Source of the DNA: an uncultured Akkermansia sp.
GTDB lineage: Bacteria; Verrucomicrobiota; Verrucomicrobiia; Limisphaerales; UBA9464
Assembly (NCBI GenBank): GCA_964386625.1
Contig: CAYLTF010000005.1
Span: 1 to 61,592 of the forward strand
DNA: 61,592 bases
Direction: 5' to 3'
The position numbers and the translations under genes were made by a program. Shown here one piece after another: positions 23,498 through 45,825 of this stretch. Within the stretch, counting starts at the first letter, position 1, and the number at the start of each line of letters is the position of its first letter. Below the pieces are notes generated by a model. The model was not told where the DNA came from, made no database searches, and worked only from the letters and a program-made list of their open reading frames with translations.

Positions 23498-23572
23498 TGG
23501 CTCCAGAGGAAGGGCTCGAACCTTCAACCCATCGGTTAACAGCCGATTGCTCTACCATTGAGCTACTCTGGA
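23498..23572 (-). tRNA. tRNA-Asn (anticodon GTT), CCA encoded
   Basis: The minus strand reads TCCAGAG-TA-GCTC-AATGGTA-GAGC-A-ATCGG-CTGTTAA-CCGAT-GGGTT-GAAGG-TTCGAGC-CCTTC-CTCTGGA-G-CCA. It folds by hand into a full cloverleaf with a 7-bp acceptor stem, a TTCGA T-loop, anticodon GTT and discriminator G. Confidence 0.9.
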
Positions 23573-24033: not shown

Positions 24034-24133
24034 GGTTCCGCGGCGCGGAGACAAGATCCACCACCGTCGGATCCGCCAGGAAACCCCATCGACTCTTCTG
24101 CAGGGCGAGTCATCGCCGCGCGGGGCGCCCGAC

Positions 24134-24700
24134 TCAGGGAGAACAGGCGATCACTCCGGGCGTGGAATAGAGGTAGCGTCCGTCCCCGATCGGGTGGCGG
24201 GCGATCACGGTGACCCTGTCATTCTTCGGCTTGAACCCGCCCCAGCGAAGCGTCAGCTGGTAGCCCGTTCCGACCATCGCCTGGGTTTCGTAACTCTTGA
24301 GATCCTTGGCCGTGAAAGTCCAGGTGTGGGCGGGTTGAGGAAGCGGGGCGTTGTTCCCGGTCAGGAGTCCGTCGAAGAGCAGGATCTCGATCTCACCGCT
24401 GCGGATCTGTCCAGGTTTCGCCGCGTTGCCCACGTTCGCGAAGAGTTTGACGGCGACCCCATCCGGCCCCGCCGCGCCATCCAGATTCAGGGCGACCGGC
24501 ATCGTCAACAGATGGAGTTCCAGGATCCCCGACGACCGCTGCGAACCGCGGCCTCGCATACCGGTTCCGGATGCGGTCCCCGAACCTCCGGTGCCGCATC
24601 CGACGGCCAGCCCGAGGACCAGCGCGATGCACAGCATCGGCACCCGGCCCGGGAGATGGCGGCCTGCGTGGAGGACTGGGAATCGGGATGTGGGCATCAC
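24134..24700 (-). CDS. Lipoprotein translationally coupled to the giant secretin (candidate pilotin/accessory)
   Basis: 188 aa. Its ATG (24700-24698) overlaps the secretin stop (24699-24697) as ATGA. The lipobox is 'LVLGLAVGC'; the mature part looks beta-rich. Confidence 0.6.
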   Translation of the reverse strand: MMPTSRFPVLHAGRHLPGRVPMLCIALVLGLAVGCGTGGSGTASGTGMRGRGSQRSSGILELHLLTMPVALNLDGAAGPDGVAVKLFANVGNAAKPGQIRSGEIEILLFDGLLTGNNAPLPQPAHTWTFTAKDLKSYETQAMVGTGYQLTLRWGGFKPKNDRVTVIARHPIGDGRYLYSTPGVIACSP

Positions 24701-27700
24701 TTCTTGCCGGCGGGTGTGTTGGTCTTGGAGCCGTTGGGGTCGTTCGGGAAGATCGAGTCCAGCAACTGGGCCTTCAGCGGATCCTTGTGCTCTGCGCTGC
24801 GAAGCGTCGACTTCTCCAGCATCCGGGTCGAGTAGTTCCCGATGGTGGTGATCTTGGCCTCCTGGTCATGGTTGGCGGTCAGCACCTGGGGCGTCAGCAT
24901 GATGAGCAGTTCCCGGCGCTCGGTCTTCTTGGACGAGCTGCGGAAGAAGAAACCGACACCCGGGATGTCGCCGAAGAAGGGCGTCTTTTTGCGGCGGATG
25001 TCGTCGACGGTGCCGATGAGGCCGCCGATGACCACGGTCTGGCCGCTCTGCACCGTGACCGTCGTGGAGGCGCGTCGCTCGTTGATGATCGGCACGGTCG
25101 CCTTGTCGTTGATCTCCACGCTGGAACTGGCCAGGGAGCTGTTGGTGGCGCCCACATCGATCTTCACGAAACCTTCGCCGGTGATGCGCGGAGTGACGGT
25201 GAGGTTCACACCCACGTCGCGGTAGTCGAAGGTGTTGATCTGGCCGCCCTGCGGTGTGGTGGAACTGCCGGTGATGATCGGGACCCGTTGGCCGATGTTG
25301 ATCGAGGCGATCTTGTTGTCGGCGGTGAGGATCTGCGGCCGGCTCAACACCTCCACTCGGCCGTCGTTCTCGAGGGCCCGCATCAGGAAGTTCATGTTGT
25401 TGCCGGTGACCAGCGCCGAATAGCCCCCGAAGTTCTGCATCTGGGCGGGGATGCCGAAGTCGGTGCCGGTGCCGACGTTCCAGCCGTTGCCGACATTCTT
25501 GGTGAAGCTCCACTCGAAGCCCAGGTCGCGGTTCGAGTCGAGGGTCACCTCGGCCAGGAGCACCTGGATGAGCACCTGCGACTGGGCTTGGTCGAGCTCC
25601 TCGATGATCTGGTGGATCTGCTCGAAATACCGCGGGCTGGCCGAGAGCAGCAGGGTGTTGCTGACCTGCTCGGGCACGATGGCCACCTCGCGCTCCAGCA
25701 GGCGCTGGGCGGTGCCGACCGCGTCGGTGCCCAGCACCTGGGTGACCCGCTGGCGTTCCTGGTCAAGGAAGCTGCGGATGGCGGTGCCGACATCGGGTGC
25801 CTGGGCGTTCTTGAGGCGATAGACCTCGGTCTTGCGCTCCAGGGCCTCGGACGAATCGAGAGTCTCGATGATCTGCTGGACCAGCGCGACGTAGTGCTCG
25901 GTGCCGCCGACCAGCAGGGTGTTGGTCCGGGGATCGACGCTGACCGTCAAGGCAGTCTGCTCCTCGGAGCCGATGACGGCGGTGGCCGAGGCGGTCTCGG
26001 TGCCATCCGGGGCCGGCTTCATGAGGGTGTATTGGATGGTCCGCTGCCCGTTGGCGGCCAGCGCGGTGCCGCTGGACTGCATGCGGAACATCGAAAGCAG
26101 CAGTTGGGCGGTCTGCTGGGCGTCGGCGTTGCGGAGCGAGAACACGCGGATCTTGGCCTCGCGCGAGGAACTGTTGTCGAGGCGGCCGACGATCTGCTCG
26201 AGCAGGCCCATGTAGTCGACCGGTCCGGACACCACGAGGGCGTTCATGCGCGGGTCCGGCGTGATCGAGATCGCCTCCTTGAGGGCGGCGGTCACCAGCT
26301 CCTGTCCGTCCTCGGTCCGGGTCACGAATTGCAGCACCGACTGGGCATTCGGGCTCAGGTCCGAGAGCGGGGCGATCTTTGAATTCAGGGAGGTGTTCAA
26401 GACCTGGGTGAGGTTCTCGGCCCGGGCGTACTTGAGGGGAATCACGCGGATCTCGCTCACGCGTGCGGTCTGGTCGGTGTCCAGCTTCGCCACTACGTCG
26501 CGGATGCGCTTCAGGTCGGTGGCTCCGCAGGAGACCACCAGCGCGTTCACCCGCTCGTCGGCGCTCACCACGATGGGCAGGGGACCGCCCTGGGTGCCTT
26601 CACGGAAAAGGCCCTGGACGGTCTGGGCGACCTTGCGGGCGTCGGCCTTGGCCAGGGGGATCACTTCGACCTTGAGGCCCAGTTCAGCCTGCTGCGTGTC
26701 GAGCCGCTGGATCAGGCCGTCGATCATGGACATGTCCTCGACCACCGCACCCACGATCAGCGCGTTCACCCAGGCGTCGGCGACCACGGTGATCGGATCG
26801 ACCGGCTCACCCCGTGCCTTGGGCGGGCGGTTGGCGAAGAGTCGCTGCAAGGTCGTCTGCAGGCGGACCGCGGTGGCCTCCTTGAGGGGGAAGACCCGGA
26901 AATTCAGCTGGGCGAGGCGGTCCTCGGCGTCGAGCTGGGGCACGATGCGGTCGAGCATGTCGATGGCCTCCTTGGAGCCGGTCGCGAGGATGGCATTGAG
27001 CCGGGTGTCGGCGATCACGGCCACGGGCATGCTGCGCTCCGGTGCATTGAGCGAGGCGGCGTCGGCCGCCTTGCGGGCCTGGAGGTACTGGGTGAGGACC
27101 CCCGCCAGGTTGGAGGCCCGGGCGTGCTCCAGCTTGTACACTTTGAGGTCGGTGGCGGCCACGAAGTCCACGGTGTCGACCTTGGCGAGGATCTCCTTGA
27201 TGAGACCGAGATTGTCGGGGCTCGCCGAGACCATGAGCGTGTTGCTCCGGGTATCCACGGCGATGGCCATGGCGTCCCGGCTTGCCTGGCCTGGGATCTT
27301 CACGTCGGACCGGCCCGGGCGGTACATGCCTTGCTGGACCAGGCTCTTGAGCATGGTGGCCACGCGCTGGGCGTCGGCATGCTTGAGGACGAAAGTCTCC
27401 AGCACACCCTCGGCGACGGTGGGTTCGACATCGATGCGGGTGAGCAGGTCCTTGATGAGGTCCAGGTTCTCCTTGTTGGAGGAGACGATCAGGGAGTTGT
27501 TGAGACTGTCGGTCTGGATCTCCACCCGGTCGGTGGGGGAGGGAGTCTGGCCGGGCAGGGTGCGCGCCTGGATGCGGGCGGCGAAGACACCCTCGAGAGT
27601 GGCGGCAACCCGTGCGGCGTCGTTGTGCTTCAGGGGCAGGACGGTCAGCGCCAGCGAGGGGTTGTCGAGCTTGCGGTCGAGCTTCTTGAGGAGGGCGTCG

Positions 27701-30700
27701 ATGGTCTCGTTGTCCTCGCGGCCGGCGGACACCATCAGCGCGTTGACCCGGGCGTCGGGCAGGATCACCGGTTTCTGGCGCTGGATCTCGGGCGAGGTGC
27801 TCGCCTGGTAGCGTTGGGTGAACAACTGATTGAAGGACGCCGCGAGGATGCGGGCGTCTGCATACTCCAGCGGCACGATGCGCACGCCGCCGGTCAGGCC
27901 CGGTGCGGCGTCGTCGAGCTTGCGCGCGAGAGATTCGACCAGTTCGTACGCATCCTTGCCACCGCCGACCAGGAGGCTGTTGGAGCGCGGTTCAGGCAGC
28001 ACCAGCACCTTGAGGCTGTCGGCCTGGCCTTTCCCGAGGGAACCCTGGCGGGTGACCCGCTGATCCATGAGGCGCTGCAGGGTCGCGGCCAGTTGGGCGG
28101 CATCGGCATGGGCGAGGGGCAGGATGCGGATGTCCCGGAACTCCGGCGCCATCGGCTTGTCGAGTTGGGCGATGAGGTTGTCGATGATGGCGAAGGCCTT
28201 GTCGTTCCCGGAGACGATCATCGAGTTGCTGCGATCATCGAGCGTGACGGTCGGGCGATCGGCCGGCTTGGCGTTGGCGTTGCGCGGGCCATTGTGGAGA
28301 TCGGAGATGATCTTCTGGACCGAGGCCGCGTCGGCGTGCTTGAGCGGATAGATGCGGACGGTGCTCAGCCCCGAGGCATCGGGGATGTCGAGTTGGGCCA
28401 GCAGTTCCTCGATCAGCGGCAGGGTGTCGGCGCGGGCGGCGACGATCAGGGCGCCGGCATTGTCGTCGGCCTGCAGGGTCAGGGCGGTGCGGGTCTTGGC
28501 CTGCTCGGTGGAGACCGTCTTGCCGCCCTCGCGGCGGGTCTGCAGCCGGCTGACATAGTTGTTCAACCCCTCGGTTCCCGGGACCGCCGGCCCCTCGGCG
28601 AACACGGATTGAAGCATCGGCAGCAGGCGGCTCGGGGTGGCGTATTTCACCCGGAACACCTTCACCTCGGTGATGGACGCGTCCCATTGCTTGTCGAGGT
28701 CTTTGACGAGCTTGCGGGCCAGCTCGATGGAGTCCTTGCGGCCGGACAGGATGAGGGCGTTCAGGCGGGAATCCGGAGTGACATTCAGGAGGCTGGCCAG
28801 TGCGCGTGCCGATCCGTTCTCGGGCTTGCCCGGGCCGTCCTGGCGGGTGCCGAGCTTGGCGCCCTGGGTGAAGATGGAGGTCAGGGTCTGGGCGGTGGTC
28901 CGGGCATCGGCGTGGAGCAGGGCCACGACCGCGAAGTCGGCGGCCTCGGCGGAGCCCACCTGGTCGAGCATCTCCACGACCTTGCCCAGGGCGTCGAGGT
29001 TCTTCGGGGTGGAGGTGATGAGCAGGCGGTTGCCGTCGCTGGGATCGGCCGTGATCTTGATCGGGCGCTGGAGATCGAGGGCCAGCGGTTCGCCCGAATC
29101 CCCCCGGATGTTGAGTTTGCGGACCTGCTCCTGGAGTTCACGCGCCTCGGTGCCCGCTTCTCCGGTGGCTCCCGGTCGCAACAGGTTCTGCAGGGTCGTG
29201 GCCATCGCCGGCGCGGCATTCTGCTTGAGCGTGAACACCCTCACCTCGGCTTCCGCATCTTCGCTGGGGGTGTCGAGGGTCTTGATCATCTTCTCCACCT
29301 GGGCGATGAGCGGCTCGCGGGCCACCACCAGCAACCCCTTGGATCGGCCGTAGGGGAGCACCGTGAGGGGATCGCCGGGATGCTGGGCGGCGAGTTGCTG
29401 GATCAGTTGCTGGACCAGCGGCGTGATTTTGGACGGGGGGGTGTGGGTGAGGGTGATGAGCCGATGCGACAGGTCGGCTGCCGGGTTGGCCGTGTCGAGT
29501 TGTTTGACCAAGGCCTCGATGATGGAAAAATCCTTGGCCGAGGCCCGGACCAGGAGGCTCCGGGATCGGGACTCGGGCACCACGGTGAAGCGGGGTGGAC
29601 GCTGGTTCTGCTGGTTCTGCTGGGCTTCGGGCTGCCCGCCACGGCCACCACCCGGACGGAAGACGTTGTTGAGGGTCCGGGCCATGACCACCGGGTCGGC
29701 CTGCGACAGGGCCAGGATGCGGAGGTCGCTCTCGCCCGAGGTGGCCTTCCAAGACAGGTCGGTGACCATGCGGTTGATGCGGTCGAGTTCCGGGGCCGGG
29801 CCCGACAGGATCAAGGCATTGGCGTTCCGGTCGAGGGCCACGGTGACCTCCGGGGCCTGTGCCGGATTGTTGGTCTTGGTGCGGTCGATCGCCGGCAACC
29901 GTTCGACCAGCTTCAGCGAAGCGCCGTACATCTGCGGATAGATGTTGGTCAGCATGCCGACCATCTGCTCCACCGGCACGTCATCCACCGTCAGGAGCCG
30001 GACTTGGAGGCTGTTGTCCTGGGCGGAGGTGTCCAGCCGCTGGATCAGGTCCTGGATCTGGGGCATGTCGGAGCGCCGGGCGATCACTGTCAGGGTGTTG
30101 GCCTCGCGGTCCACCTCGAGGACGGGCTGTTCGCCGCGAGGGCGCTCCTCATAGACGGCGGCGACCTTCATGCGGATGTCGGCGGCCCGCGCATTCTGGA
30201 GCCAGACGAACTGCACGTCGCGGTCCGAGCGCTCCGGGGCCTTGTCGAGGGTCGGCAGCAGTTGCTCGATGAGTTTGAAATGGGTGGCCGAGGCGGTGAT
30301 GAGCAGACTGTTGGATCGGGGATCGATGGCGATGGCCGGCTGGGAACGGCCACCGAAACCGCGGCGTTCGAGCCGGGTGCTCACGTTGGCCAGCAGCTGG
30401 GAGAGCACCGGCTGGATGTCGGTGGCGTTGGCGCTGCTGAGCTTGTAGATGCGGACCTCCACCTCGCCGGTGGCGCTTTCCGCGTCGAGCTCCTTGACCA
30501 GCTTCATGACCTCCTGCACGGCCTCGCCCGGCCCGTTCAGCAGGAGGGCGTTGGCGCCGGTCACCGGGGTGATGCTGACCCGGCGGAGCTTGGCGTCGGT
30601 CCCCTTGCTGGCGATGGCCTTGTTGACCGACTCGGCCACGGTCTCTGCGACCGTCTTGCGCAGGAGCACCGTCTGGAGCACCGACGAGCCGCCCGGGTCC

Positions 30701-33700
30701 GAGACATCCACGGAATGGATGACCGACTGGACCCGCTCGAAGAGGGCGGGGGGCGCGTTGACGAGGAGCGAGCGCTCGTCGAGGGCCGGGGTGACGACGA
30801 GCCGTTGGGCGTTGTCGGTGAGGGCCATCTCGCGGGCGAAGAGTTGACCGAGCAGGGTGATCACCGGCGCCGCGGTCACATGCTGCAGCGGCAAGGTGCG
30901 CACCCCGCGAACCAGGTTGGTGTCCGTGGTCAGGAGGCGTGAGGCGATTTCCTGGACCGCCTGCCATTGGGTGGGATTGGCGGTGACGAGCACGCGCGAC
31001 TGGGAATCATCGGGGACCAGAACGAGGTCGGTCGTCTTGCCCGAGGCCTTGAGGCGGTCGAGCACCAGCGGACGCAGGCGGGCCACCGCCTCGGTGGCCG
31101 AGCCCTGGGTGATCGGCAGGATCTGGAGGTCCCGCGCCTCGCGGGTGGTCGTGGCGTCGAGTTGGGTCACGATCTGCTCGGCGGCCTGCAGATCCTTGGC
31201 CTCACCCGAAACCACGAGGGTGCGGGCGGTGTTGTCGACACCGAGAGTGACCCGAGGCGTGATCCGGCCCGAGGATTCCACCGTGGCCAGCGTGTTCGAC
31301 AGGGCGGCCGCAACCTGGGCCGGCTCGGCGTTGGTCAGACGGAAGATCCGGGAGTTGCCCGAGCGCTGGTTGGCGGTATCGAGGTTCAAGACCAGGGCGG
31401 CGATCTGGTCCAGGTCATTGGTGCGTCCGGTGACGATGAGGCGGTTTCCCTCGGTGTCGGCACGGATCACGGCCTGCTCGGCCGGAGGCACGGGTTTGGA
31501 CTTGAGCGATTCCTCATACAGGGAGCGGAGCGTGCCGGCCAATTCGGTGGCCTTCCGCGCGGCCAGATTCAACACCCGTGTCTCTCGTGGGGCAGGGGCG
31601 GCCGTGGGTGCCTGGATCACGCCGAGGAGGGATTCGATCTCGGCGAGGTGATTGGTCCGTGCGGTGACCAGAATGCGACCGTTGGGGGCATCGGGAGTGA
31701 ACACCGCATCGGCCGGGTCGGCCGCGTCCTGGGTCTTCCAGCGTTCGGTGTAGAGCTGCCGGAGCAGGGGAAGCACGCGGATCACCTCGTCGGGCTGTCC
31801 CACCGTGATCGGCCGGGTCTCGCGAGGGGCCAAGGCCGCGGTGTTCTTCTGGAGTTGCTCGAGGATGTTGTCGACCAGCCCGAGCTGGGCCTCGCTGCCG
31901 GCCAGGATGAGCTGGTTGCTCGTGGCGTCATCCAGGATGAGCAGGTCGGAGAGGGCCAGCTCGGGCTGGTTGCGGGACTGGTCGTTGTACAGCTGCCGGA
32001 CGCGGGCCGACATCTCGCCCACCTTGCCCTGGCGCAGGGTGACCACCTTCATGCGGCGGTCGGGTCGGGCCCCGAGGGACGTGTCGAGCTGCTCGATGAT
32101 GGTGGAGACGGCCTGGAGTTCCTTCGGGTCGCCCGTCACGATCAGGGTGCGGCTCTTGGCATCCACCGAGACCGTGGCCCGCTTCTGGGCCCGGCCGAAG
32201 GCATCGTAACGAACCAGCGCGGTGGACAGCACCTCGGCCACCTTGTCCGGCTCGGCCGACCGGATCTTGAAGACCCGGGCTGTCGCGCTCTGCGAACCGA
32301 CCTTGTCGAGCTTGCGCACCAGGTCTTCGATGACGGCCAGCTCGTTGGTCTCGCCGACCACGATCAGGCGGTTGCTGCCCGTGTCGGAGGTGATGGTCGT
32401 GTCGGGCGGGGTGGCCCCGAAGCGGGCCTTGGCCTGGTCGAGGTACAGGCTGCGCACGGTGGTGGCCAACTCGGAGGCCGTCGCTGTGGCCAAGTCGATG
32501 ATGCGGACATCGCGGGAGTCGGCCCCGGGCTTGGCTGGGCTCGTGCCCAATTGCTGGAGGATCGACTCGATCTTCTGCAGGTGATCGGGCCGACCGGTGA
32601 CGATGATGCGCCCGCTGCGGGGATCGGCCAGGATCTGGGCGTCGGCCGGATCGGTGTCGGCACGCTCCTTCCATTGGTCGGTGTACAATTGCTGCAGCAG
32701 CGGTTGCACGCGCTGGACGTCGCTGGCGGAGCCGACCTCGAAGGTCCGCGTCTCGCGGCCGAGGTTCGTGCCACCGGTGCTCTTGAGATTGGCGATGATC
32801 TCCGAGATGCGGTCGAGGTGGGAGACCCGGCCCGAGGCGATGATCCGGCCCGAGCGGGGCTCGGTGATGAGCTGGGTGTCGGCGGGACCGTCGGAGGGGC
32901 GGCTCGAGGCCTGGTCCTTGTAGAGCTGCTGGATGATCGGGAGCAGGCGCTGGGCCTCGGCGGGCTTGCCGATCTCGAAGACCCGGTTCGTGCGCGCCTC
33001 GGGCATCTCGGTGGCCAGCGTGGTGACGATCTGGCGCACGGCCGTCGCCTGGTCGGCGGTGCCGAACACCATCAGCCGGTCGCCGCTGGGGTCGGTGTAC
33101 AGGGTGGCCGGCTTCGTGGTGCGCCCCTGGTTCTGCTCGGCGTAGATCTTGTTGACCATCGGCAGGAGGTCCGCGGCGCGGCTGCCCTGGGGTTCGATGG
33201 TGTGCAGTTGGCGCTGCGACTGATCCGGGCGGGCGTCGAGGGCCGAGATCACCGTCTCCACCTGCGCCATCAATGAATCCGGCGCGAGCACGATCAGTCG
33301 TCGGCCGTTCGGCTCCGGGGTGATGCTCACCAGGTTGGTCACCGAGCGTCCGGCGTTCTGGGCCATGAACACGCGGGTGGCCACCTGGGCGAGCGTGTCG
33401 GGTTCACCGACCACCTCCACCATCTTCAGATTGCGGTTCTTCGACCCGCCCGAGGTGCCCCCGTTCCCCTCGGCCCCCTCGTTGTCGAGGCGTTGGATGA
33501 TCCCCTCGGCGTCCTTCAGGTCCTGGCGGGATCCGGAGACCACGATGCTGTTGGACTCCCGATCGAGGGAGACCGAGGCCCGGCGGATGGGCTGGTTGCG
33601 GGCGTCGAATTTCACCATGGCGTTGGAGACCACGCTGACGACCTGGGCGGCGTCGGCGTTGTTGAGCCGGAAGACCCGGGCGCCGCCGGCGGCCTCCGGG

Positions 33701-36576
33701 GCCTGGTCGAGGCGTTCCACCACCTGGGTGATCAGCGTGATTTCTTCGCGCGGGGCGGAGATGATGACCCGGTTGGCGGCCGGGTCGGGCATGATGCGGC
33801 CCTTGGGGGTGTATTCGGTCCCGCGTTGGCTCTTCAGCAGGTCGGTCGCCAAGGTGGTGGCCAGCGTGGCCAAGGCGGCTGCGTCCGCCTGCTTGAGTTC
33901 GATGACCTTCATCTCGCGGGGTTGCACGTCGGAGGGGACGTCCAGCTCGCGGATGATCTTGGCGGCGGCCTCGACCGCCGCCGGTTCACCGGTGATCACC
34001 AGGCTGTTGCTTCGCGTATCGACCAGCACCTTCACCGCCTGGGTCTGGGAGCCGAGGCCCTTCTCGACCAGGCTGGAGATTTCCGAGGCGACGGCCGTCT
34101 TGAGGCGGATGATGCGCGTCTCCTCCTTGGCGCTCTTCTGCCCGGCCGGGTCGAGTTGACGGATGATGGCCTCGACGCGGGTGATCTCGCGCTCGGCGCC
34201 GCTGACCATGATGCGGTTGTTCTTCGCATCGGTCATCAGGGTGGCCGGTCCTCCGGGGGGCTCGGTGTTGCCCTTGATCTGCTCTTGGTAGAGCTGCTGC
34301 ACCAACGGGGTCAGTTCGGCCGCGGTGCGGTTGTGCAGCTCGACGTTGCGGAATTGGCGGCTGACGGCCGAGGCGGTCGTGGCGTCGAGCTGCTGGATGA
34401 GGGTCCGCACCCGCTGGATGTCCGAATCGGTGGCGAGCACGATGATCTGCTTGCCCGAGGCGTCCGGGATGAGCTTGGGCTCGAGCTGCGGGTTGCTCGG
34501 TTGTTCACCCAGCTGGCTCATCATCTGGCCGGCGAGGGTGATCAGTTCAGCGGGGGACTTGCCGTTGACCGGGATGACGGCCATCTGGCGCTTCTGGCGC
34601 TCCGGGGCGACATCCACCACGGACAGGATCGCCTCGATCTCCTTCTTCTGTTCCTCGGTGGCCGTCACCAGAAGCCGGTTGTTGGCGTTGTCGGGGACGA
34701 CCGATGGCTTGGGTTGGTCCTCGAAGCGCCGATCCGCCATGCGCTCGTTGATCAGGCTGTTGAGGCTGTTGAAGGCCGTCTCGAGCCGGGCATTGCGCAA
34801 CGAGAGGATGTGCAGCGAGCGTTGCAGCGGTCGGGATTTCTCGGCGCGCAGATTGCGGACGATCTCCTCGATGCGGGTCAGGTGCTCCTCCGAGGCCGTC
34901 ACGATCAGCCGGCTGGTGTTGGGCTCGGCCATGATCTTGGCGTGGGCGGCACCGCCGGCGCTCCCGTCGGCGACCTCGCTGCGGTAGATCTGCTCGACCA
35001 GGGGGACGATGCGCTTGGCCTCGGCGACGCTGCCGAGGTCGATGAAGCGGGTCTGCTGCGGCTTGGGATTGGTCGAACCGGTCTCCAGTTGGGAGATGAT
35101 GTCGGTGGCGGTCTGCACGTCGCCCGGCGAACCGGTCACCACGATGCTCTGGCTTCCCGGTTCCACCGAGACGCTCGCAGTGGGGACCTTCTGTCCGTTG
35201 GGCAGCGTCTTGGTGAGGGCCTCGGTGAGGATCTTGCCGACATTCTTGACCTCCGAAGTGCGGGTGCGGAAGACCCGGGTGATCTGCACGACCTGGGCCT
35301 TGCCCGGGGTGGCGTTGGCCACGGTGCGTCCCGATCCGTGGACCGGCTTGTCGAGCCGATTGACCAGCGCCTCGATCTGGTCGGCCATCCCGGCGAGCGG
35401 AGCGGCGACGATCAACCGGTTGGTGTTCTTCTCGGCGATGACGCGCGCCTTGGTGGCGGCGGCCGAGCCCGTCTCGTTGGGGGCCGCGACTCCGGGGATG
35501 GCCTGGCGGATCATGTTGGCCAACTCCTCGGCCTTGATGACCTCGGGGGTGTAGATGCGCACATCGCCGGCACCGCTGCCGCCGTCCTCGAAGCGGGTGA
35601 TGAGTTCGTCGGCCAGCGCCAACCGCTCACGGGGGCCGAACAGCACCAGGGTCCGCGAAGCGTCATCATACACGGCCGTGACGTAGTCGTTGGGGTCGGC
35701 TGGCAGCACGTCCAACTGCTTGGTGTTGGGGTTGAACTGCGTGCGCTTCGGGGCGGTGGTCACGCCGAAGGTGCGGTTGATGAGGTCGGCCACGACGGCC
35801 CCGGAGGCGTGGAGCAGCGTGTAGGTCTTCATCTGCCGCTGGGCCGCCGTCTCGTTGTCGACCGAGCCGATGAGGGCCTTGACCCGCTGGATGTTGGCCA
35901 GGCGGTCGGTGAGGATCAGCCCGCGGCCTCGGGACAGCGGGGCGACGGACCCCGCCGACGAAAGCAGGTTGGTGATCGATTCGGAGATCTCCTTGGCGTC
36001 GAGGTTCTTGAGGTCCAACACCACCGTGACCACCTCGCCGGGGCGGACCCCGTCGGCCTTGTCGCCGCCGCGCAGGATGCGCAAGGGGGTTTGCGGCAGT
36101 TCCTTGAAGGGCACCACCCGCAGGAAGTTGCCCTCTTCGACCACCATCTGCCCCTTCATGGACAGGATCACGTTGAGCGTGTCGAACGCCTCCGCGTAGT
36201 TGTACGCGTTGGAATCGTTGAAGGTGATGGTGCCCGGGATGTTCACCTCGCCGACCACCGGTTTGCCCGACATCTGCGCGAAGCGCTCGATCACGTCGGC
36301 GTAGGGAATGCCGTCGAACTGGAAGCGGATGTTCTTCGTGCTGGTCGACGGAGCCGCGGTGGGGGCATTCGTCGCGGAAGACTGCTCGGGCGTCGTGCTC
36401 CCCGCGGATGCCGTGGCCGAGGCGGGGACTTGGGTCGGGGACGCCTTGCCCGGGCTCGCTGGGGAGCTGCCGGAACCCGGATTGACCGTCTGCGCTTGGA
36501 CGAACGGGTTGGGGACGATCAGGCCGAGGCCGACGCCGAGGGCGAGGGCCAGACGGAAGGGCCGGTTCATGTTCAT
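24697..36576 (-). CDS. gspD: Giant GspD/PilQ-family secretin (3,959 aa): signal peptide, N0, ~43 secretin-N domains, secretin barrel
   Basis: Single uninterrupted ORF. Signal peptide 'MNMNRPFRLALALGVGLGLIVPNPFVQAQ' and N0-like residues ~82-160. A long array of units follows, each ending in '..N-x-L-[ILV]-[ILV]..[IL]xx[IL]D'. The canonical C-terminal secretin domain is 'RVEVLSRPQILTADNKIASINIGQRVPIITG...TPFFGDIPGVGFFFRSSSKKTERRELLIMLTPQVL'. Confidence 0.9.
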   Translation of the reverse strand: MNMNRPFRLALALGVGLGLIVPNPFVQAQTVNPGSGSSPASPGKASPTQVPASATASAGSTTPEQSSATNAPTAAPSTSTKNIRFQFDGIPYADVIERFAQMSGKPVVGEVNIPGTITFNDSNAYNYAEAFDTLNVILSMKGQMVVEEGNFLRVVPFKELPQTPLRILRGGDKADGVRPGEVVTVVLDLKNLDAKEISESITNLLSSAGSVAPLSRGRGLILTDRLANIQRVKALIGSVDNETAAQRQMKTYTLLHASGAVVADLINRTFGVTTAPKRTQFNPNTKQLDVLPADPNDYVTAVYDDASRTLVLFGPRERLALADELITRFEDGGSGAGDVRIYTPEVIKAEELANMIRQAIPGVAAPNETGSAAATKARVIAEKNTNRLIVAAPLAGMADQIEALVNRLDKPVHGSGRTVANATPGKAQVVQITRVFRTRTSEVKNVGKILTEALTKTLPNGQKVPTASVSVEPGSQSIVVTGSPGDVQTATDIISQLETGSTNPKPQQTRFIDLGSVAEAKRIVPLVEQIYRSEVADGSAGGAAHAKIMAEPNTSRLIVTASEEHLTRIEEIVRNLRAEKSRPLQRSLHILSLRNARLETAFNSLNSLINERMADRRFEDQPKPSVVPDNANNRLLVTATEEQKKEIEAILSVVDVAPERQKRQMAVIPVNGKSPAELITLAGQMMSQLGEQPSNPQLEPKLIPDASGKQIIVLATDSDIQRVRTLIQQLDATTASAVSRQFRNVELHNRTAAELTPLVQQLYQEQIKGNTEPPGGPATLMTDAKNNRIMVSGAEREITRVEAIIRQLDPAGQKSAKEETRIIRLKTAVASEISSLVEKGLGSQTQAVKVLVDTRSNSLVITGEPAAVEAAAKIIRELDVPSDVQPREMKVIELKQADAAALATLATTLATDLLKSQRGTEYTPKGRIMPDPAANRVIISAPREEITLITQVVERLDQAPEAAGGARVFRLNNADAAQVVSVVSNAMVKFDARNQPIRRASVSLDRESNSIVVSGSRQDLKDAEGIIQRLDNEGAEGNGGTSGGSKNRNLKMVEVVGEPDTLAQVATRVFMAQNAGRSVTNLVSITPEPNGRRLIVLAPDSLMAQVETVISALDARPDQSQRQLHTIEPQGSRAADLLPMVNKIYAEQNQGRTTKPATLYTDPSGDRLMVFGTADQATAVRQIVTTLATEMPEARTNRVFEIGKPAEAQRLLPIIQQLYKDQASSRPSDGPADTQLITEPRSGRIIASGRVSHLDRISEIIANLKSTGGTNLGRETRTFEVGSASDVQRVQPLLQQLYTDQWKERADTDPADAQILADPRSGRIIVTGRPDHLQKIESILQQLGTSPAKPGADSRDVRIIDLATATASELATTVRSLYLDQAKARFGATPPDTTITSDTGSNRLIVVGETNELAVIEDLVRKLDKVGSQSATARVFKIRSAEPDKVAEVLSTALVRYDAFGRAQKRATVSVDAKSRTLIVTGDPKELQAVSTIIEQLDTSLGARPDRRMKVVTLRQGKVGEMSARVRQLYNDQSRNQPELALSDLLILDDATSNQLILAGSEAQLGLVDNILEQLQKNTAALAPRETRPITVGQPDEVIRVLPLLRQLYTERWKTQDAADPADAVFTPDAPNGRILVTARTNHLAEIESLLGVIQAPTAAPAPRETRVLNLAARKATELAGTLRSLYEESLKSKPVPPAEQAVIRADTEGNRLIVTGRTNDLDQIAALVLNLDTANQRSGNSRIFRLTNAEPAQVAAALSNTLATVESSGRITPRVTLGVDNTARTLVVSGEAKDLQAAEQIVTQLDATTTREARDLQILPITQGSATEAVARLRPLVLDRLKASGKTTDLVLVPDDSQSRVLVTANPTQWQAVQEIASRLLTTDTNLVRGVRTLPLQHVTAAPVITLLGQLFAREMALTDNAQRLVVTPALDERSLLVNAPPALFERVQSVIHSVDVSDPGGSSVLQTVLLRKTVAETVAESVNKAIASKGTDAKLRRVSITPVTGANALLLNGPGEAVQEVMKLVKELDAESATGEVEVRIYKLSSANATDIQPVLSQLLANVSTRLERRGFGGRSQPAIAIDPRSNSLLITASATHFKLIEQLLPTLDKAPERSDRDVQFVWLQNARAADIRMKVAAVYEERPRGEQPVLEVDREANTLTVIARRSDMPQIQDLIQRLDTSAQDNSLQVRLLTVDDVPVEQMVGMLTNIYPQMYGASLKLVERLPAIDRTKTNNPAQAPEVTVALDRNANALILSGPAPELDRINRMVTDLSWKATSGESDLRILALSQADPVVMARTLNNVFRPGGGRGGQPEAQQNQQNQRPPRFTVVPESRSRSLLVRASAKDFSIIEALVKQLDTANPAADLSHRLITLTHTPPSKITPLVQQLIQQLAAQHPGDPLTVLPYGRSKGLLVVAREPLIAQVEKMIKTLDTPSEDAEAEVRVFTLKQNAAPAMATTLQNLLRPGATGEAGTEARELQEQVRKLNIRGDSGEPLALDLQRPIKITADPSDGNRLLITSTPKNLDALGKVVEMLDQVGSAEAADFAVVALLHADARTTAQTLTSIFTQGAKLGTRQDGPGKPENGSARALASLLNVTPDSRLNALILSGRKDSIELARKLVKDLDKQWDASITEVKVFRVKYATPSRLLPMLQSVFAEGPAVPGTEGLNNYVSRLQTRREGGKTVSTEQAKTRTALTLQADDNAGALIVAARADTLPLIEELLAQLDIPDASGLSTVRIYPLKHADAASVQKIISDLHNGPRNANAKPADRPTVTLDDRSNSMIVSGNDKAFAIIDNLIAQLDKPMAPEFRDIRILPLAHADAAQLAATLQRLMDQRVTRQGSLGKGQADSLKVLVLPEPRSNSLLVGGGKDAYELVESLARKLDDAAPGLTGGVRIVPLEYADARILAASFNQLFTQRYQASTSPEIQRQKPVILPDARVNALMVSAGREDNETIDALLKKLDRKLDNPSLALTVLPLKHNDAARVAATLEGVFAARIQARTLPGQTPSPTDRVEIQTDSLNNSLIVSSNKENLDLIKDLLTRIDVEPTVAEGVLETFVLKHADAQRVATMLKSLVQQGMYRPGRSDVKIPGQASRDAMAIAVDTRSNTLMVSASPDNLGLIKEILAKVDTVDFVAATDLKVYKLEHARASNLAGVLTQYLQARKAADAASLNAPERSMPVAVIADTRLNAILATGSKEAIDMLDRIVPQLDAEDRLAQLNFRVFPLKEATAVRLQTTLQRLFANRPPKARGEPVDPITVVADAWVNALIVGAVVEDMSMIDGLIQRLDTQQAELGLKVEVIPLAKADARKVAQTVQGLFREGTQGGPLPIVVSADERVNALVVSCGATDLKRIRDVVAKLDTDQTARVSEIRVIPLKYARAENLTQVLNTSLNSKIAPLSDLSPNAQSVLQFVTRTEDGQELVTAALKEAISITPDPRMNALVVSGPVDYMGLLEQIVGRLDNSSSREAKIRVFSLRNADAQQTAQLLLSMFRMQSSGTALAANGQRTIQYTLMKPAPDGTETASATAVIGSEEQTALTVSVDPRTNTLLVGGTEHYVALVQQIIETLDSSEALERKTEVYRLKNAQAPDVGTAIRSFLDQERQRVTQVLGTDAVGTAQRLLEREVAIVPEQVSNTLLLSASPRYFEQIHQIIEELDQAQSQVLIQVLLAEVTLDSNRDLGFEWSFTKNVGNGWNVGTGTDFGIPAQMQNFGGYSALVTGNNMNFLMRALENDGRVEVLSRPQILTADNKIASINIGQRVPIITGSSTTPQGGQINTFDYRDVGVNLTVTPRITGEGFVKIDVGATNSSLASSSVEINDKATVPIINERRASTTVTVQSGQTVVIGGLIGTVDDIRRKKTPFFGDIPGVGFFFRSSSKKTERRELLIMLTPQVLTANHDQEAKITTIGNYSTRMLEKSTLRSAEHKDPLKAQLLDSIFPNDPNGSKTNTPAGKK
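24877..25584 (-). other. Secretin beta-barrel domain-coding segment of the giant secretin
   Basis: Residues ~3665-3900, running from 'VLIQVLLAEVTLDSNRDLGFEW' to 'ELLIMLTPQVLT'. This matches the conserved secretin (T2SS/T3SS/T4P) C-domain. Confidence 0.85.
25585..36036 (-). repeat. Tandem array of ~43 secretin-N (N1-like) domain-coding units inside the giant secretin gene
   Basis: Manual parsing of residues ~181-3664 gives about 43 consecutive 65-95-aa units. Each has the pattern 'beta-strand (xVRVFxLxxAxA) - helix - ...DxxxNxLIVxGxxxxxxxIxxLIxxLD'. Examples of unit endings: 'KNTNRLIVAAPLAGMADQIEALVNRLD', 'DPRSNSLLITASATHFKLIEQLLPTLD', 'DPRTNTLLVGGTEHYVALVQQIIETLD'. Confidence 0.8.
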
Positions 36577-36597: not shown

Positions 36598-37599
36598 TCA
36601 GAATTGGGCGATGCCCGGGGGCAATTGCTCCGGTTTCAGTTTGTGGCGTTGGGCGAAGGTGCCACCGCGTTCGATGGCCCAGTATTCGTTGCCGATGCGA
36701 AGGATGACCCGACTGCCCGACAAGACGTCTTCTCGGCCCGGAGTCGGCATCGGGCGGTAGTCCACCTGGACGATGACCCCCCCGGCGATGCTGTCGCCCA
36801 CCTTGTAGCGGAGGGTCTTCTGGGCGGTCAGGTCTCGGACATGGATCTCGGACTCGCCGGCCCACTCCGACAGCGAGACCAGGCGGAAGGTTTCCGGGCC
36901 CGGACTGCCCGGGGGGGCCGGGCGGGGCGGGGCCGGGGGTTGGCCCACCGGGGGCGCCGGTGCCGGGCGCGGGATGTAGGGGCGCAGGAGGTCCCGCGCG
37001 ACCATGGCATCGTAGGCGCGCCGCTCCGGGCTCTCGGCGTTGAGGCGGGATTCGAGGTCGCCTCGCTCGACCTCGGGACACGGAGCGGGCACCAGGGTGA
37101 GGTAGCGGAAGCTCACCCGGACACGGCCGGGGGCGTCGGATGGGGAGAGGGTCAGACCGTCAAGCCGATGGACCGGCGTTGCACGGTCGAGCAGGAAGAT
37201 CAGGTTGACCACCTGCGCGAGCGGACCGTCGCCACGGACCGTCCAACCGGTCTCGAGCGCGCCGCGGATCTTGCGGGTGCCGGTCGGGAGGCGGCTGAAG
37301 TCGGCTTCCCGCAGGCCGCTGTTGATCAGGGTCCGCGTGAGCATCTCGCCGAACCGGGCGCTGGCCTGGTCGATGTCGTCGGAGAAGGTTCGGGCGGCGA
37401 CGGCTTTCACCGCATCCTCGGCGGCGAAGTAATCGCGGCGTTCCTTGGCGAGCCGATCGAGCTTCTCGCGGACGCCGGCGATGCGTCGGTCGATCTCGGT
37501 CAGCGGCTTGAGGAAGACGCTGCGACCGATCACGAAGAGCAGCGCCACACCGACGAGACCCCCGATGACGGTCAGGAGCTTTTTCTCGCGATCGTTCAT
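36598..37599 (-). CDS. Bitopic inner-membrane assembly protein: GspM/PilO-like N-half plus GspC/PilP-like C-terminal domain
   Basis: 333 aa. One N-terminal TM ('LLTVIGGLVGVALLFVIG'), a coiled-coil-like segment, a globular region, the Pro-rich linker 'RPYIPRPAPAPPVGQPPAPPRPAPPGSPGPE', and a ~90-aa beta-rich C-domain. It lies between the PilM/N-like gene and the secretin. The domain assignment is inferred from architecture and position. Confidence 0.5.
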   Translation of the reverse strand: MNDREKKLLTVIGGLVGVALLFVIGRSVFLKPLTEIDRRIAGVREKLDRLAKERRDYFAAEDAVKAVAARTFSDDIDQASARFGEMLTRTLINSGLREADFSRLPTGTRKIRGALETGWTVRGDGPLAQVVNLIFLLDRATPVHRLDGLTLSPSDAPGRVRVSFRYLTLVPAPCPEVERGDLESRLNAESPERRAYDAMVARDLLRPYIPRPAPAPPVGQPPAPPRPAPPGSPGPETFRLVSLSEWAGESEIHVRDLTAQKTLRYKVGDSIAGGVIVQVDYRPMPTPGREDVLSGSRVILRIGNEYWAIERGGTFAQRHKLKPEQLPPGIAQF

Positions 37600-39266
37600 C
37601 GAGCCCCTCCCTTCCGGGGATTCTCAAGGGACATGTCGTCGGCGGGCCGGGCCGGGGGGTGTAGCTTGTTCAGGTCGAACTTGAGCTTGGCCGGAACGGT
37701 GAGCTCGACCGTGGTGCGGAAGTTGTACCCGTTGCGATCAGCGCCCGGGGTCACGGCCAGGGGCTTCACATCGTAGCCGGCGGCCCGCAGCAGACGGTCG
37801 ACCTTGCCGAGGATCTCGCCGTTGCGGGCCTGGACTCCCAGGCGGATGGCCCGGTTGGGTCCGAAGGCGACGGAAGTCAGGTAGATCTCCTCGCTGGGCG
37901 GCAGCACCGCGCTCAAGTGGGCATAGTGGTCGAGCCAGTCGCGCTCCTCGGCCGACCAGGCCTTCAAGGTGGCCGCCTGCTGGATCATCTGGCGGTAGAC
38001 CGGCCGCTTCTTCTCTCCGGTGGTCAGCTCCGACTGGAGGGCGGCGAGCACGGCCTCACGCCGGCTGATCAGCGTCTTGCGCACCCCGAGCACCACGACC
38101 AGGACCGCGACCGCCGCGGCGGCCCCGGCGATCATTCGGATCTTCCGGAGGTCGGGCGGAGGCGTGGGGCGCTTGGGGTTGAGGAAGTCGAATTCGAGGC
38201 CGGACGGGTGGGTGGCCCCCAGTGCGAGGCCGATGCTGGAGAAGCCGCTCGCCACCGCCGCCGCGTCGGATCGTTCCAGGCCAAGCGCGTGAGCGGGTGC
38301 GACCTGGGGCACGGCGAACCCGAGGCGGGTCTGGAGCGCGATCGAAAGGGCCTCTTCATGGCCGGTGCCGCCGAGGATGGCCGCGGCCTCCGGTGCGGTG
38401 CGCCCGGCGGTGCCGCCGAAGGCGTGCAGGCTCCGCACCACCTCGATCGTCGCCGTCCGGACCCATTGCTCGGCATCGGTCTCCGCCGCGGGGGGCATCG
38501 GAAGGCCACGGCTGAACAGCAGGGAGGATCCTTCCAGGATCTCGATGCCGACCTCCTCGGACTTGAGCGCGACCAAGGCTCGTGGCCCGGTCTGCGCCCC
38601 GGCGCCGGTGCCCGTCGCCTGGAGACAGGTGGCGTTCGCCTGCGAGATCCAGCCCACGGCGGCCAGTGAAAGACCCGCGGCCTCGGCCAACCGCCGGAGG
38701 AACTCGAGGGACTCCTGCCGGGTGACGGCCACCAGCACCTCGACACGGTCCACAGAATCGTGGGCCGTCGCCGGGGACGACGCCTGCGTGTCGCCCTCGC
38801 CAGGCTCGCGTGCGGGAAGTCGGCGGAGGATCTGGAAATCGATGATCGCCTCGTCCAGTCGGAAGGGCAGGTCGCGCGCCACCTGGAAGCGGACGAGGGA
38901 CGCGATGGTGCCGGTCAGCCCGGTGTCGGGGACCGCCACCGTCCGGAGGATCACCTGCGAGCGGCCGATCCCGAGCACCACGGGGCCGGGTTTGATCCGG
39001 GCCTTGGCCAGCGCCTTCGCGATGGCCGTCCCGAGGACGGAGGCATCGGTCCGATCGGCGTCGTCCGGCAGTTCGAGGGCCAAGGCGCGGACCTGGTCGA
39101 CGCGGCTCGAGTTGCCCGATCGGGTGGCCTCGGCGATGCGGAGCACCCGGCCGTCGACCTCCAGCGCCGTCACCGCAGGCAGGCCACGGACCGTGGGGCG
39201 CGAACCTGCCCCCCCGGGGAGTCGGGATCGGATCTGACCGGTCAAATCTTTGAGGGAAATTCCCAT
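37596..39266 (-). CDS. PilM-like (actin-fold) / PilN-like fusion; functional analogue of GspL
   Basis: I prefer the ATG at 39266; the track start is a GTG at 39290. The N-terminal ~380 aa resemble PilM ('VLGIGRSQVILRTVAVP', 'LVRFQVARDLPFRLDEAIIDFQIL'). One TM follows ('IRMIAGAAAAVAVLVVVLGV'), then a periplasmic ~160-aa domain. The stop overlaps the next gene's start (ATGA at 37596-37599). Confidence 0.6.
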   Translation of the reverse strand: MGISLKDLTGQIRSRLPGGAGSRPTVRGLPAVTALEVDGRVLRIAEATRSGNSSRVDQVRALALELPDDADRTDASVLGTAIAKALAKARIKPGPVVLGIGRSQVILRTVAVPDTGLTGTIASLVRFQVARDLPFRLDEAIIDFQILRRLPAREPGEGDTQASSPATAHDSVDRVEVLVAVTRQESLEFLRRLAEAAGLSLAAVGWISQANATCLQATGTGAGAQTGPRALVALKSEEVGIEILEGSSLLFSRGLPMPPAAETDAEQWVRTATIEVVRSLHAFGGTAGRTAPEAAAILGGTGHEEALSIALQTRLGFAVPQVAPAHALGLERSDAAAVASGFSSIGLALGATHPSGLEFDFLNPKRPTPPPDLRKIRMIAGAAAAVAVLVVVLGVRKTLISRREAVLAALQSELTTGEKKRPVYRQMIQQAATLKAWSAEERDWLDHYAHLSAVLPPSEEIYLTSVAFGPNRAIRLGVQARNGEILGKVDRLLRAAGYDVKPLAVTPGADRNGYNFRTTVELTVPAKLKFDLNKLHPPARPADDMSLENPRKGGAR

Positions 39267-39431
39267 GTTGCTTTGGACTCGAGGAAACACCGCCAGAATG
39301 CCACAGCGCTCGACGAGTCGCCAACACCCGACGCTGGCGAGCCGTGGCTTATTTCAGCTGATTTTCGAGGCGGCCCCGGGCGGTTTTCCGGGGTTTTGTC
39401 CGGGCCGGTGCCGTCACCCTCCCGCCTGCGT

Positions 39432-40871: not shown

Positions 40872-41656
40872 GGGGCCGGGACCTCCTCTGCCATCGCCGG
40901 TTCGACCATCGCGGCGGGTTGTGCAAGCGCCGCGGGCAGCGCGATGACCCGGCGGAACACCTCGAACGGGTAGTCGGCCGGCGCGTCGCCGGTATCCGTG
41001 ACCTCGTCGGGGAATGTCTCTTCGATGGGGTCCAGGCCGAGCGAAACCTCGACGGCAGACGGCGGTTCGGCCTTGTCCCATGCGCTCTGCCAACGGGATC
41101 CATCCCAGTACCGGAAACGCAGATAACCGATGGCCTCCGAGAGGAGCGCGCCACCCGAGGATGGGATCGAGTTCGTGCCGCCGACCGAGGGCGATTCGAT
41201 CTCGGTGGGCAGGTTGGTGGAGACCGCGGCGCTGGCCGTATGCGCCCGTTCCTGCCGGAACAATCCTGGTTGATTGGTGTCGGACGACCATCGGTAGGCG
41301 ACCTCCATCCAATCGGCCTCCGCGATCGCAGCCCGGCCCAGATTCCCTCCGCGCCAGGGAGTCTTGGACGGAACCGCCGTGTGGAGCATCCGCAGGGAGC
41401 GGGAATCACCGGAGAGGATCGGGGTCCCCGGGGTCGCGGGTGGAACCGTGCGCAGTTCGCTGCTGATCCGATCCATCACCAAGCGCACTGCGGAAAGGGC
41501 GTCGGCCTTGCGCAGGATCTCTTCGCGGAGGACCGAAGCCTGTCGATAGAACACCAGGACGCCCGTGAGCAGGCCGACGGCGATCACGATCGCCAGGACC
41601 ACCTCGATCAGGGTGAATCCACCGGCATCCCCGGGGTTGCGCCTTGGAATCGTCAT
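40868..41656 (-). CDS. gspJ: Minor pseudopilin GspJ-like (prepilin-type N-terminal cleavage/methylation domain)
   Basis: 'GDAGG/FTLIEVVLAIVIAVGLL' prepilin site with Glu5, and a 'LRFRYWDGSRWQSAWD' segment typical of GspJ. 262 aa. Confidence 0.65.
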   Translation of the reverse strand: MTIPRRNPGDAGGFTLIEVVLAIVIAVGLLTGVLVFYRQASVLREEILRKADALSAVRLVMDRISSELRTVPPATPGTPILSGDSRSLRMLHTAVPSKTPWRGGNLGRAAIAEADWMEVAYRWSSDTNQPGLFRQERAHTASAAVSTNLPTEIESPSVGGTNSIPSSGGALLSEAIGYLRFRYWDGSRWQSAWDKAEPPSAVEVSLGLDPIEETFPDEVTDTGDAPADYPFEVFRRVIALPAALAQPAAMVEPAMAEEVPAP

Positions 41657-45727: not shown

Positions 45728-45778
45728 GTGTTGTTTGCTGGTTCTTGGCCGGTGGTCGTGGATTTCCCTGTTCGGAAC

Positions 45779-45809: not shown

Positions 45810-45825
45810 TCTTGTGAAAGCTGCA

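Follow-up and report, generated by a model that had tools for sequence, protein, structure and literature searches.

A giant type II secretion secretin with 43 tandem N domains encoded in a freshwater Verrucomicrobiota bacterium

A 61,592-nucleotide stretch of contig CAYLTF010000005.1 from an uncultured Akkermansia sp. (hereafter the window) carries on its minus strand, at positions 24697..36576, a single open reading frame (ORF) that begins with ATG and runs for 3,959 codons with zero internal stops, encoding a protein of ~424 kDa in its mature form. Its GC content at third codon positions (GC3) is 0.91 in a genome of 66% GC, and its composition across codon positions is that of a real gene. 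Sequence comparisons identify the product of this gspD-like gene as the outer-membrane secretin, a GspD homologue, of a type II secretion system (T2SS) in a freshwater Verrucomicrobiota bacterium. By the same comparisons, the usual two or three N domains of such a protein have here been expanded to 43, approximately fourteen-fold, and the resulting units are anciently diverged and individually conserved.

From its N-terminus, the protein opens with a predicted Sec signal peptide (residues 1-28, MNMNRPFRLALALGVGLGLIVPNPFVQA; 36493..36576, minus strand) and a low-complexity linker rich in S, T, A, P and G (residues 29-80; 36337..36492, minus), both read by eye from the sequence; full-length members of the family described below begin with similar hydrophobic leaders. 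The N0 domain that follows (residues ~81-165; 36082..36336, minus) was assigned from Pfam and from alignment to the Vibrio cholerae GspD structure 5wq8, and is presumed to be the docking site for the inner-membrane platform. On residues 93-154 the Pfam model type_II_gspD_N0 scored 25.0 bits, slightly below its 27-bit cut-off, while residues 81-440 aligned collinearly with N0-N1-N2-N3 of 5wq8 (E 3e-11), and homologues of this N-terminus have precomputed PF21305 matches. Next come the 43 Secretin_N units, of the ring-building beta-alpha-beta-beta-alpha type (residues 184-3665; 25582..36027, minus; Pfam and a self-built hidden Markov model, HMM), then the secretin outer-membrane barrel domain (residues 3666-3900; 24877..25581, minus) and finally a 59-aa C-terminal tail in the position of the GspD S-domain (residues 3901-3959 plus the stop; 24697..24876, minus). 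The barrel, of which the protein has one, was identified by Pfam Secretin (residues 3734-3899, E 1.5e-48), by Foldseek, and by a search of PDB sequences in which PulD 6hcg (9e-45) and GspD 5wq7 (5e-44) were the best matches. The tail is the least conserved part of the protein, with 41-92% identity in orthologues versus 87-98% for the barrel.

At the observed scores, a chance match to this architecture is not an issue. Both functional ends of a normal GspD are recognisably kept, namely N0 with the first N domains at one end and the last N domain with the barrel and tail at the other. The original prediction, made from the sequence alone, had described an uninterrupted minus-strand ORF with a signal peptide, linker, N0, N units, one barrel and a ~59-aa tail, and each of these elements was confirmed; its identification of the protein as a secretin was in turn backed by Pfam, NCBIfam, the PDB sequence search and the structure search.

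Within the array, Pfam Secretin_N recognised 38 separate stretches, with a total of 1158.6 bits. An HMM grown from one unit reached 37 units at the seed stage and 43 with the first profile, and remained stable at 43 on iteration, with all 43 units (E <= 4e-11) tiling residues 184-3665. The count of about 43 that had been made by hand was therefore exact, the refuting outcome named in advance, that only a few units would prove to be Secretin_N, was not borne out by the 38-43 counted here, and the unit motif written down at that time agrees with the HMM consensus, xRxxxLxxAxA...DxxxNxLxV...LD. Units are 60-102 aa long (median 71) and are joined by linkers of 5-9 aa, with longer gaps of ~20 aa following only units 3 and 11; within units 21-43 (25582..31353, minus), 20 consecutive inter-unit linkers are exactly 6 residues long. 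Pairwise identity between units averages ~21% and reaches 47% at most. The most similar block is an internal duplication in which units 15-17 match units 19-21 (31147..32988, minus) at 43-47% identity versus the array mean of 21%, and which sits in the middle zone where relatives vary in unit number. Units 2, 27-32 and 41-43 are where long insertions concentrate, bringing unit length to 80-102 aa. In Thermus PilQ a second gate is built from loops, and these insertions might likewise mark additional constrictions.

A giant ORF of this kind might also be a repeat expansion produced by mis-assembly, or a decaying pseudogene, the more so as the sequence is of metagenome type and some public copies are broken, one (L025) into ~10 pieces and another (L027) into 2. 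We consider this explanation effectively refuted by the divergence of the units, the lack of DNA repeats, collinear independent assemblies and purifying selection. Tandem Repeats Finder detected no nucleotide tandem repeats in the secretin gene beyond trivial ones of 5-16 bp, which, together with the ~21% identity between units, makes repeat-driven mis-assembly implausible. Scanning one genome per GTDB species, we recovered 20 close relatives, 81-98% identical over the last 379 aa, and in 20/20 the frame stays open to the end of the fetched DNA (at least 3,711 aa where the full 10 kb upstream was included). Nine independent loci from metagenome-assembled genomes (MAGs) display 42/43 units, the maximum that a 10-kb flank can show, collinear with the window at 75-96% identity and with 0-4 gapped and 0-14 inserted residues per ~3,700 aligned positions. 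A collinear, stop-free array of 42-43 units is thus present in at least nine independent assemblies, contrary to the assembly expansion or hidden stops that the original prediction had named as its own possible undoing. Moreover, the ratio of nonsynonymous to synonymous substitution rates (dN/dS, Nei-Gojobori, against three close orthologues) was 0.04-0.09 over the whole gene, and no unit reached 0.22, indicating that each unit is individually maintained. One relative, of 3,510 aa, occurs in identical form in more than 10 independent assemblies, and 122/150 of the top family representatives are full-length, with N0 and barrel. As for the broken copies (L025:1-11611, ENA contig_22862, and L027:11060-21008), their ~10 and 2 consecutive ORFs all carry Secretin_N, resemble those of frameshift-prone assemblies and look like frameshift errors.

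The titles of all but one of the 20 close relatives either denote MAGs of Verrucomicrobia, Verrucomicrobiota or Verrucomicrobiales, for the most part from lakes and ponds, or are the evidently wrong 'Akkermansia muciniphila'. The latter title is carried by five lake MAGs (L006-L008, L014 and L015; 81-95% identity over the last 379 aa), probably through label or binning errors, and the one exception (L018) is titled Candidatus Chromulinivoraceae. These close relatives, together with distant giant secretins from Limisphaerales and Phycisphaerae, bear out the earlier guess of a host from the Planctomycetota-Verrucomicrobiota-Chlamydiota (PVC) group.

A profile built from the 43 units, run against 1.84 billion representative proteins with matches clustered at 50% identity, yielded 18,450 matches at E <= 1e-3 and 2,035 at E <= 1e-30. 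At least 150 clusters, counting the top 150, have representatives of 1,794-5,532 aa with 22-61 matched stretches; an N0-like segment was found in 133/150, and the 122/150 that have both an N0-like start and a barrel contain 27-57 units (median 38) at a median length of 4,218 aa. Giant members carry automatic names such as 'type II secretion system protein D' (JGI entries of this name measure 4,618-5,131 aa) or 'secretin N-terminal domain-containing protein'. The named ones belong to Verrucomicrobiota and Planctomycetota, including Phycisphaerae (MFP4104932.1, 4,756 aa), Limisphaerales (3,510 aa) and Verrucomicrobiia, and all named relatives are MAGs. One member of the Limisphaerales cluster (MGK0197355.1) is titled 'Yoonia sp.', probably a label or binning error.

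Like the window protein, these uncharacterised giant secretins have a signal peptide, N0, 27-57 N units and a barrel, with barrel-proximal units orthologous in register with those of the window and, in Verrucomicrobiota, the same operon; they differ from it in unit number and in the composition of the middle of the array. Two close relatives among them, P0127 and P0121, align collinearly with the window and depart from it where blocks of units have been gained or lost, around units 13-23 in mid-array. Across 121 complete members, position relative to the barrel is kept for units 42-43 in 85-96%, for units 36-41 in 55-70% and for units 29-35 in ~30-40%, and is not kept for the middle units. Judged from these alignments, the family is one of conserved ends and a variable middle. 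A Gemmataceae secretin encoded on the chromosome (L021; 2,027 aa, 9 Secretin_N stretches) likewise combines PVC membership with an expanded N array and has a barrel 31% identical to that of the window; it differs in its intermediate size and in ~400 N-terminal residues that have no Secretin_N match.

When the C-terminal 379 aa or the N-terminal 340 aa served as the query, all matches were <=660 aa, indicating that gene catalogues hold the giant-secretin family largely as fragments; the sizes given above therefore come from the profile search of representative proteins. An exact-sequence look-up of the window protein gave no match. The open-access and preprint literature that we searched (subscription journals lay outside its scope) contained no description of giant or multi-N-domain secretins, including in PVC bacteria. 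The original statement that no characterised secretin of this architecture was known therefore stands for this literature; the protein is, however, no singleton but a typical member of a family of at least 150 clusters already public as automatic GspD entries. What is new here is the recognition of the architecture, its conservation and its spread, the sequences themselves being already public under automatic names.

The secretin gene is part of a minus-strand operon in the order gspG, gspH, gspI, gspJ, gspK, a PilM/GspL-like gene, a 333-aa gene, the secretin and a lipoprotein gene, after which comes a tRNA-Asn. The major pseudopilin GspG (43082..43627, minus) matched Pfam T2SSG (2.2e-20) and TIGR01710 (99.7 bits, above the 88.85 cut-off). 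Four minor pseudopilins follow: a GspH-like protein (42130..43041, minus; Pfam GspH at 23.0 bits versus a cut-off of 21, and N_methyl), a GspI-like protein (41653..42087, minus; a weak TIGR01707 gspI match of 4e-4, and operon position), a GspJ-like protein (40868..41656, minus; weak T2SSJ, N_methyl and a prepilin-type N-terminus) and a GspK-like protein of 480 aa counted from an internal ATG (39432..40874, minus; Pfam T2SSK_1st 1.3e-13, and HHH_3). For the last of these, NF037980 GspK was sub-threshold at 83 bits yet the best match; GspK is taken as a T2SS hallmark. The GspH-like pseudopilin also weakly matches TIGR02596, 'Verru_Chthon cassette protein D', a family of pilin-like proteins confined to Verrucomicrobia and Chthoniobacter.

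Two putative assembly-platform genes separate the pseudopilins from the secretin. The first encodes a 564-aa PilM/GspL-like protein (37596..39290, minus; Pfam PilM_2 1.3e-9, TIGR01175 sub-threshold) with a cytoplasmic actin-like domain, a transmembrane helix and a periplasmic domain. The second encodes a 333-aa bitopic PilO/GspM-like protein (36598..37599, minus), recognised by AlphaFold2 and Foldseek with weak T2SSM/GspM_XpsM sequence matches. Its AlphaFold2 model (mean predicted local distance difference test score, pLDDT, of 81) consists of a transmembrane helix, a long helix, a ferredoxin-like domain, a Pro-rich linker and a C-terminal beta-sandwich. Foldseek matched the ferredoxin-like part to PilO (2rjz and 5uvr, prob 1.0, TM-score 0.58-0.70 on the target), and the modelled beta-sandwich may be PilP/GspC-HR-like, a working hypothesis. 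More than 400 homologues of near-constant length, all annotated hypothetical, occur across Verrucomicrobiota, and in relatives the gene always lies directly upstream of the giant secretin. Relatives found through this protein have the block gspE-gspF-gspG-H-I-J-K-(PilM-like)-(333 aa)-giant secretin, with the secretin called at 4,293 aa in one locus (L029); their operon contains only one ATPase gene, with an MshEN domain, and no PilT-type retraction ATPase was seen there. In the window, the place where L027-L030 carry gspE/gspF is occupied by a gene for an acetolactate-synthase-like thiamine pyrophosphate (TPP) enzyme (43856-45916, minus), which suggests a local rearrangement. No clear GspC was recognised among the window genes.

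Downstream, the start of a small lipoprotein gene (24134..24700, minus; lipobox LAVG|C) overlaps the secretin stop. In all relatives, L019 (37% identity) and L025 (33%) among them, this lipoprotein comes directly after the secretin, and a weak homologue (22%, E 4e-5) follows a normal-sized 628-aa Phycisphaerales secretin in L026. The lipoprotein, a candidate pilotin-like partner of the secretin, had no match in Pfam or NCBIfam, known pilotin families included. Between it and the tRNA-Asn(GTT) (23498..23572, minus) lies a 163-aa ORF (23563-24054, minus) without a family match. At this position in 14 relatives, ~80 aa of translation match it at 45-60% identity, which would fit a genuine small gene or, alternatively, a conserved stretch of non-coding DNA. 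The tRNA overlaps the 5' extension of an S13 D-Ala-D-Ala carboxypeptidase ORF (21566-23527), and the true start of the latter is therefore expected further in.

The remainder of the window is ordinary chromosome, with genes for DnaJ/GrpE, ribosomal protein S9, FlhA, HisRS, a sigma-70 factor, acetolactate synthase and others. Its envelope-related genes are those for the flagellar export gate FlhA (11428-13653, plus), a MacB/FtsX-type permease (59037-61589, plus), a 999-aa MMPL/RND-like transporter with a weak sterol-sensing-domain match (53116-56115, minus) and a 633-aa protein with two lamin-tail domains (48572-50473, plus).

Among NCBIfam models, the best for the secretin was TIGR02517 GspD, at 1184.3 bits versus a cut-off of 351.35, a score inflated by the repeats; its best single stretch aligned model positions 126-596 with residues 3438-3905. 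TIGR02515 PilQ scored 440.7 bits versus a cut-off of 284, far below the GspD score, and TIGR02516 SctC, matching through the barrel and N domains common to these proteins, reached 380.7 bits. Assignment to GspD is supported by the secretin barrel domain, the N0 and KH-like N domains, the score above the equivalog cut-off, and a context of pseudopilin and platform genes in the window, with gspE/gspF at the operon head in relatives. In the place of the pilotin-bound S-domain stands the poorly conserved tail of 59 aa, accompanied by the conserved downstream lipoprotein. As for type IVa PilQ, no AMIN domain appeared in the Pfam scan of the secretin and the upstream genes are pseudopilins including a GspK homologue; as for the injectisome secretins SctC and InvG, the surrounding genes are T2SS-type, and the only gene of a type III secretion system family in the window is the flagellar flhA, ~11 kb off on the other strand.

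The same comparisons bear on whether the locus encodes a protein-secreting T2SS or another type IV filament system, such as a pilus, a machine for DNA or polymer uptake, or a fibre that retracts into the periplasm, with the long tube serving as a fibre sheath, for example in polysaccharide capture as proposed for planctomycete surface structures. The platform proteins are PilM-like, PilO-like and possibly PilP-like, their GspL/M/C signals being only weak, although PilM- and PilO-like folds are also found in GspL and GspM; the PilQ model exceeds its cut-off; the ATPases of relatives carry an MshEN domain; and fibre-mediated polysaccharide binding together with periplasm enlargement is described for Planctomycetota in PMC11131199. 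We nevertheless judge a filament system quite improbable, as GspG exceeds the equivalog cut-off for T2SS major pseudopilins and is accompanied by a GspK homologue, both ends of the protein find their best PDB matches among T2SS secretins, its best NCBIfam model is GspD, AMIN is missing from the Pfam scan, and the operon of relatives has a single ATPase gene and no visible retraction ATPase.

The closest known proteins are the secretins of the GspD/PulD/EpsD group (V. cholerae 5WQ8, E. coli K-12 5WQ7 and K. pneumoniae PulD 6HCG), which share a signal peptide, N0, KH-like N domains, a double barrel and a tail with the window protein, provide the best sequence and structure matches to both of its ends, and are likewise encoded with gspG-K and platform genes. 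They have three N units (N1-N3) and ~650 aa, versus 43 units and 3,959 aa in the window, where furthermore no GspC or known pilotin is recognisable and an unrelated small lipoprotein and a PilO-like protein of 333 aa, bearing an additional beta-sandwich, occur instead. Thermus thermophilus PilQ, at 757 aa called one of the largest characterised secretins, has six stacked rings (N0-N5) measuring 350 A, and its authors read the extra N rings as spanning a wide periplasm; it is flexible between rings, and long loops in some of its N domains form an extra gate (PMC5745081). The use of this protein as the benchmark for extra rings in the original prediction was well founded (six rings, 350 A; PMC5745081). 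It likewise exceeds the usual number of N rings and forms a rod-like stack of beta-alpha-beta-beta-alpha rings, but it belongs to a type IV pilus (T4P) and DNA-uptake machine, has 6 rings versus a predicted 44, and has a sequence roughly one-fifth as long. Our literature search yielded a single verrucomicrobial secretin whose location has been determined by experiment, the PilQ protein Amuc_1098 of Akkermansia muciniphila (907 aa), located in the outer membrane (PMC4960237). Unlike the window secretin, it is of T4P type and has an N-terminal TPR/BAM-like region, and its family model matched the window protein on the barrel only, at 73 bits versus a cut-off of 750. The slime 'nozzles' of cyanobacteria and myxobacteria were considered as a known long secretin and rejected, being normal PilQ/GspD proteins of ~80 kDa (PMC12475490).

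The barrel-proximal end of the protein, comprising units 40-43 and the barrel, was modelled as a monomer with AlphaFold2 (pLDDT 74; predicted TM-score, pTM, 0.46). Each of the four modelled units shows the beta-alpha-beta-beta-alpha pattern, the barrel forms long beta-strands at pLDDT 80-90, and the tail consists of short helices of moderate to low confidence. In Foldseek, the top matches were the GspD-type structures 5zdh, 6hcg, 6i1x and 5wq7 (E ~1e-31 to 1e-30, prob 1.0). The structure prediction that had been proposed for fragments thus confirms the folds of the domains; it leaves their relative geometry loose, as superposition on GspD chains gives a root-mean-square deviation (rmsd) of 16-19 A, such that the placement of one unit against the next is not fixed by the monomer model.

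In solved secretins, N domains form stacked rings around the channel, beneath a barrel of 12-16 subunits, and N0 contacts the inner-membrane platform through GspC-HR or PilP. The original prediction had set out two structural consequences, a tube of the order of 100 nm and a non-stacked use of most domains. Extending the arrangement of solved secretins by analogy, our preferred reading, to which we assign a probability of roughly 0.6, is that the window encodes a stacked-ring periplasmic T2SS conduit of ~130-175 nm that is docked through N0 to the inner-membrane platform. Some 12-16 subunits would form a gated double barrel in the outer membrane, and each N unit would add one ring below it, giving a continuous 44-ring conduit of ~130-175 nm and 5-7 MDa. 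The length estimate follows from 3-4 nm per ring, a value taken from Thermus PilQ (350 A for six rings plus cap). At the far end, the N0 ring would dock on a platform formed by the PilM/GspL-like protein together with the 333-aa protein, which is PilO/GspM-like and has a sandwich that may be PilP/GspC-HR-like; a GspG-K pseudopilus would be assembled on this platform and drive folded substrates through the tube, while the downstream lipoprotein would probably target or stabilise the secretin. Lineages would tune the length of the tube by gaining, through duplication, and losing blocks of units in mid-array, most plausibly to suit an enlarged or variable PVC periplasm.

Several findings favour this conduit model. 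The linkers are regular, at 6 residues in 20 consecutive cases, and barrel-proximal units, unlike those of mid-array, are kept in position; the retention of N0 at the far end in 133/150 representatives fits a need to reach the platform; and Thermus PilQ, which added N rings lengthen to cross a wide periplasm, offers a precedent (PMC5745081). An enlarged periplasm has been described for PVC phyla (PMC11131199, citing Boedeker et al.), and the PVC membership of the named giant secretins fits that report.

Other findings weigh against the model. A channel of 130-175 nm is several times the usual Gram-negative periplasm, and FlhA and a MacB-type component, both parts of short envelope-spanning assemblies, are encoded in the window, which argues against a uniformly wide periplasm. 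We also know of no precedent for a pseudopilus piston with a stroke of >100 nm. Genes gspE and gspF do not adjoin the operon and are absent from the 61,592-nt window. Foldseek linked the beta-sandwich of the 333-aa protein to PilP only weakly (3jc8_Pa, prob 0.41; 2lc4, prob 0.47), and a search of PDB sequences with a profile of the sandwich gave zero matches. Finally, the monomer model, with the pTM of 0.46 and the 16-19 A rmsd to GspD noted above, does not fix the geometry between units.

Some of these points would be accommodated if the protein were a T2SS secretin in which most N units do not each contribute one ring to a straight stack. The array might fold back into a shorter, multi-walled or wider vestibule, or the 12-16 chains might extend as flexible strands, acting as a tether, hose, cage or periplasmic scaffold and possibly binding cell wall or substrates; either way the height of the machine would be nearer that of a normal periplasm. 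Such an arrangement agrees with the at least locally normal membrane spacing implied by FlhA and the MacB-like permease, with the lack of any known piston of such length and with the indefinite inter-unit geometry of the monomer model. A unit number of 27-57 across the family, with mid-array gain and loss, is what a spacer or scaffold would display, the two ~20-aa gaps after units 3 and 11 could be hinges, and Thermus PilQ is itself flexible between rings (PMC5745081). We regard it as the main rival, though less likely than the conduit. The units are conserved individually, in identity and in position, with almost no insertions or deletions over ~3,700 aa; the short and constant 6-aa linkers suggest a defined quaternary structure rather than a non-specific flexible spacer; the far end still carries N0; and, to our knowledge, the only established role of secretin N domains, from the structures of GspD, InvG and PilQ, is ring formation around a channel.

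The conduit model can also be stated in a bolder form, which we put forward as a tentative possibility. All 44 domains would stack, so that 12-16 copies make a continuous gated tube of ~150 nm, the longest known bacterial envelope channel, which would bridge the enlarged PVC periplasm and perhaps set its width, with its length tuned through mid-array block duplication (27-57 units); such a tube may correspond to an envelope structure observed in these phyla that has so far not been assigned.

Secretins rank among the best-studied outer-membrane machines, and existing descriptions give their periplasmic part three to six rings. A widespread family of 27-57 domains under strong purifying selection implies either conduits an order of magnitude longer than those described or a new, non-ring use of the module. 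Because the family is present in catalogues as fragments, both contig-end pieces and frameshift-split copies, surveys of secretion systems may miss or miscount giant secretins. With its conserved ends, the family constitutes a natural length series of ~9, 27, 43 and 57 units, and either answer bears on the long-standing question of how members of the PVC group whose periplasm is enlarged or irregular link their two membranes and export proteins in folded form.

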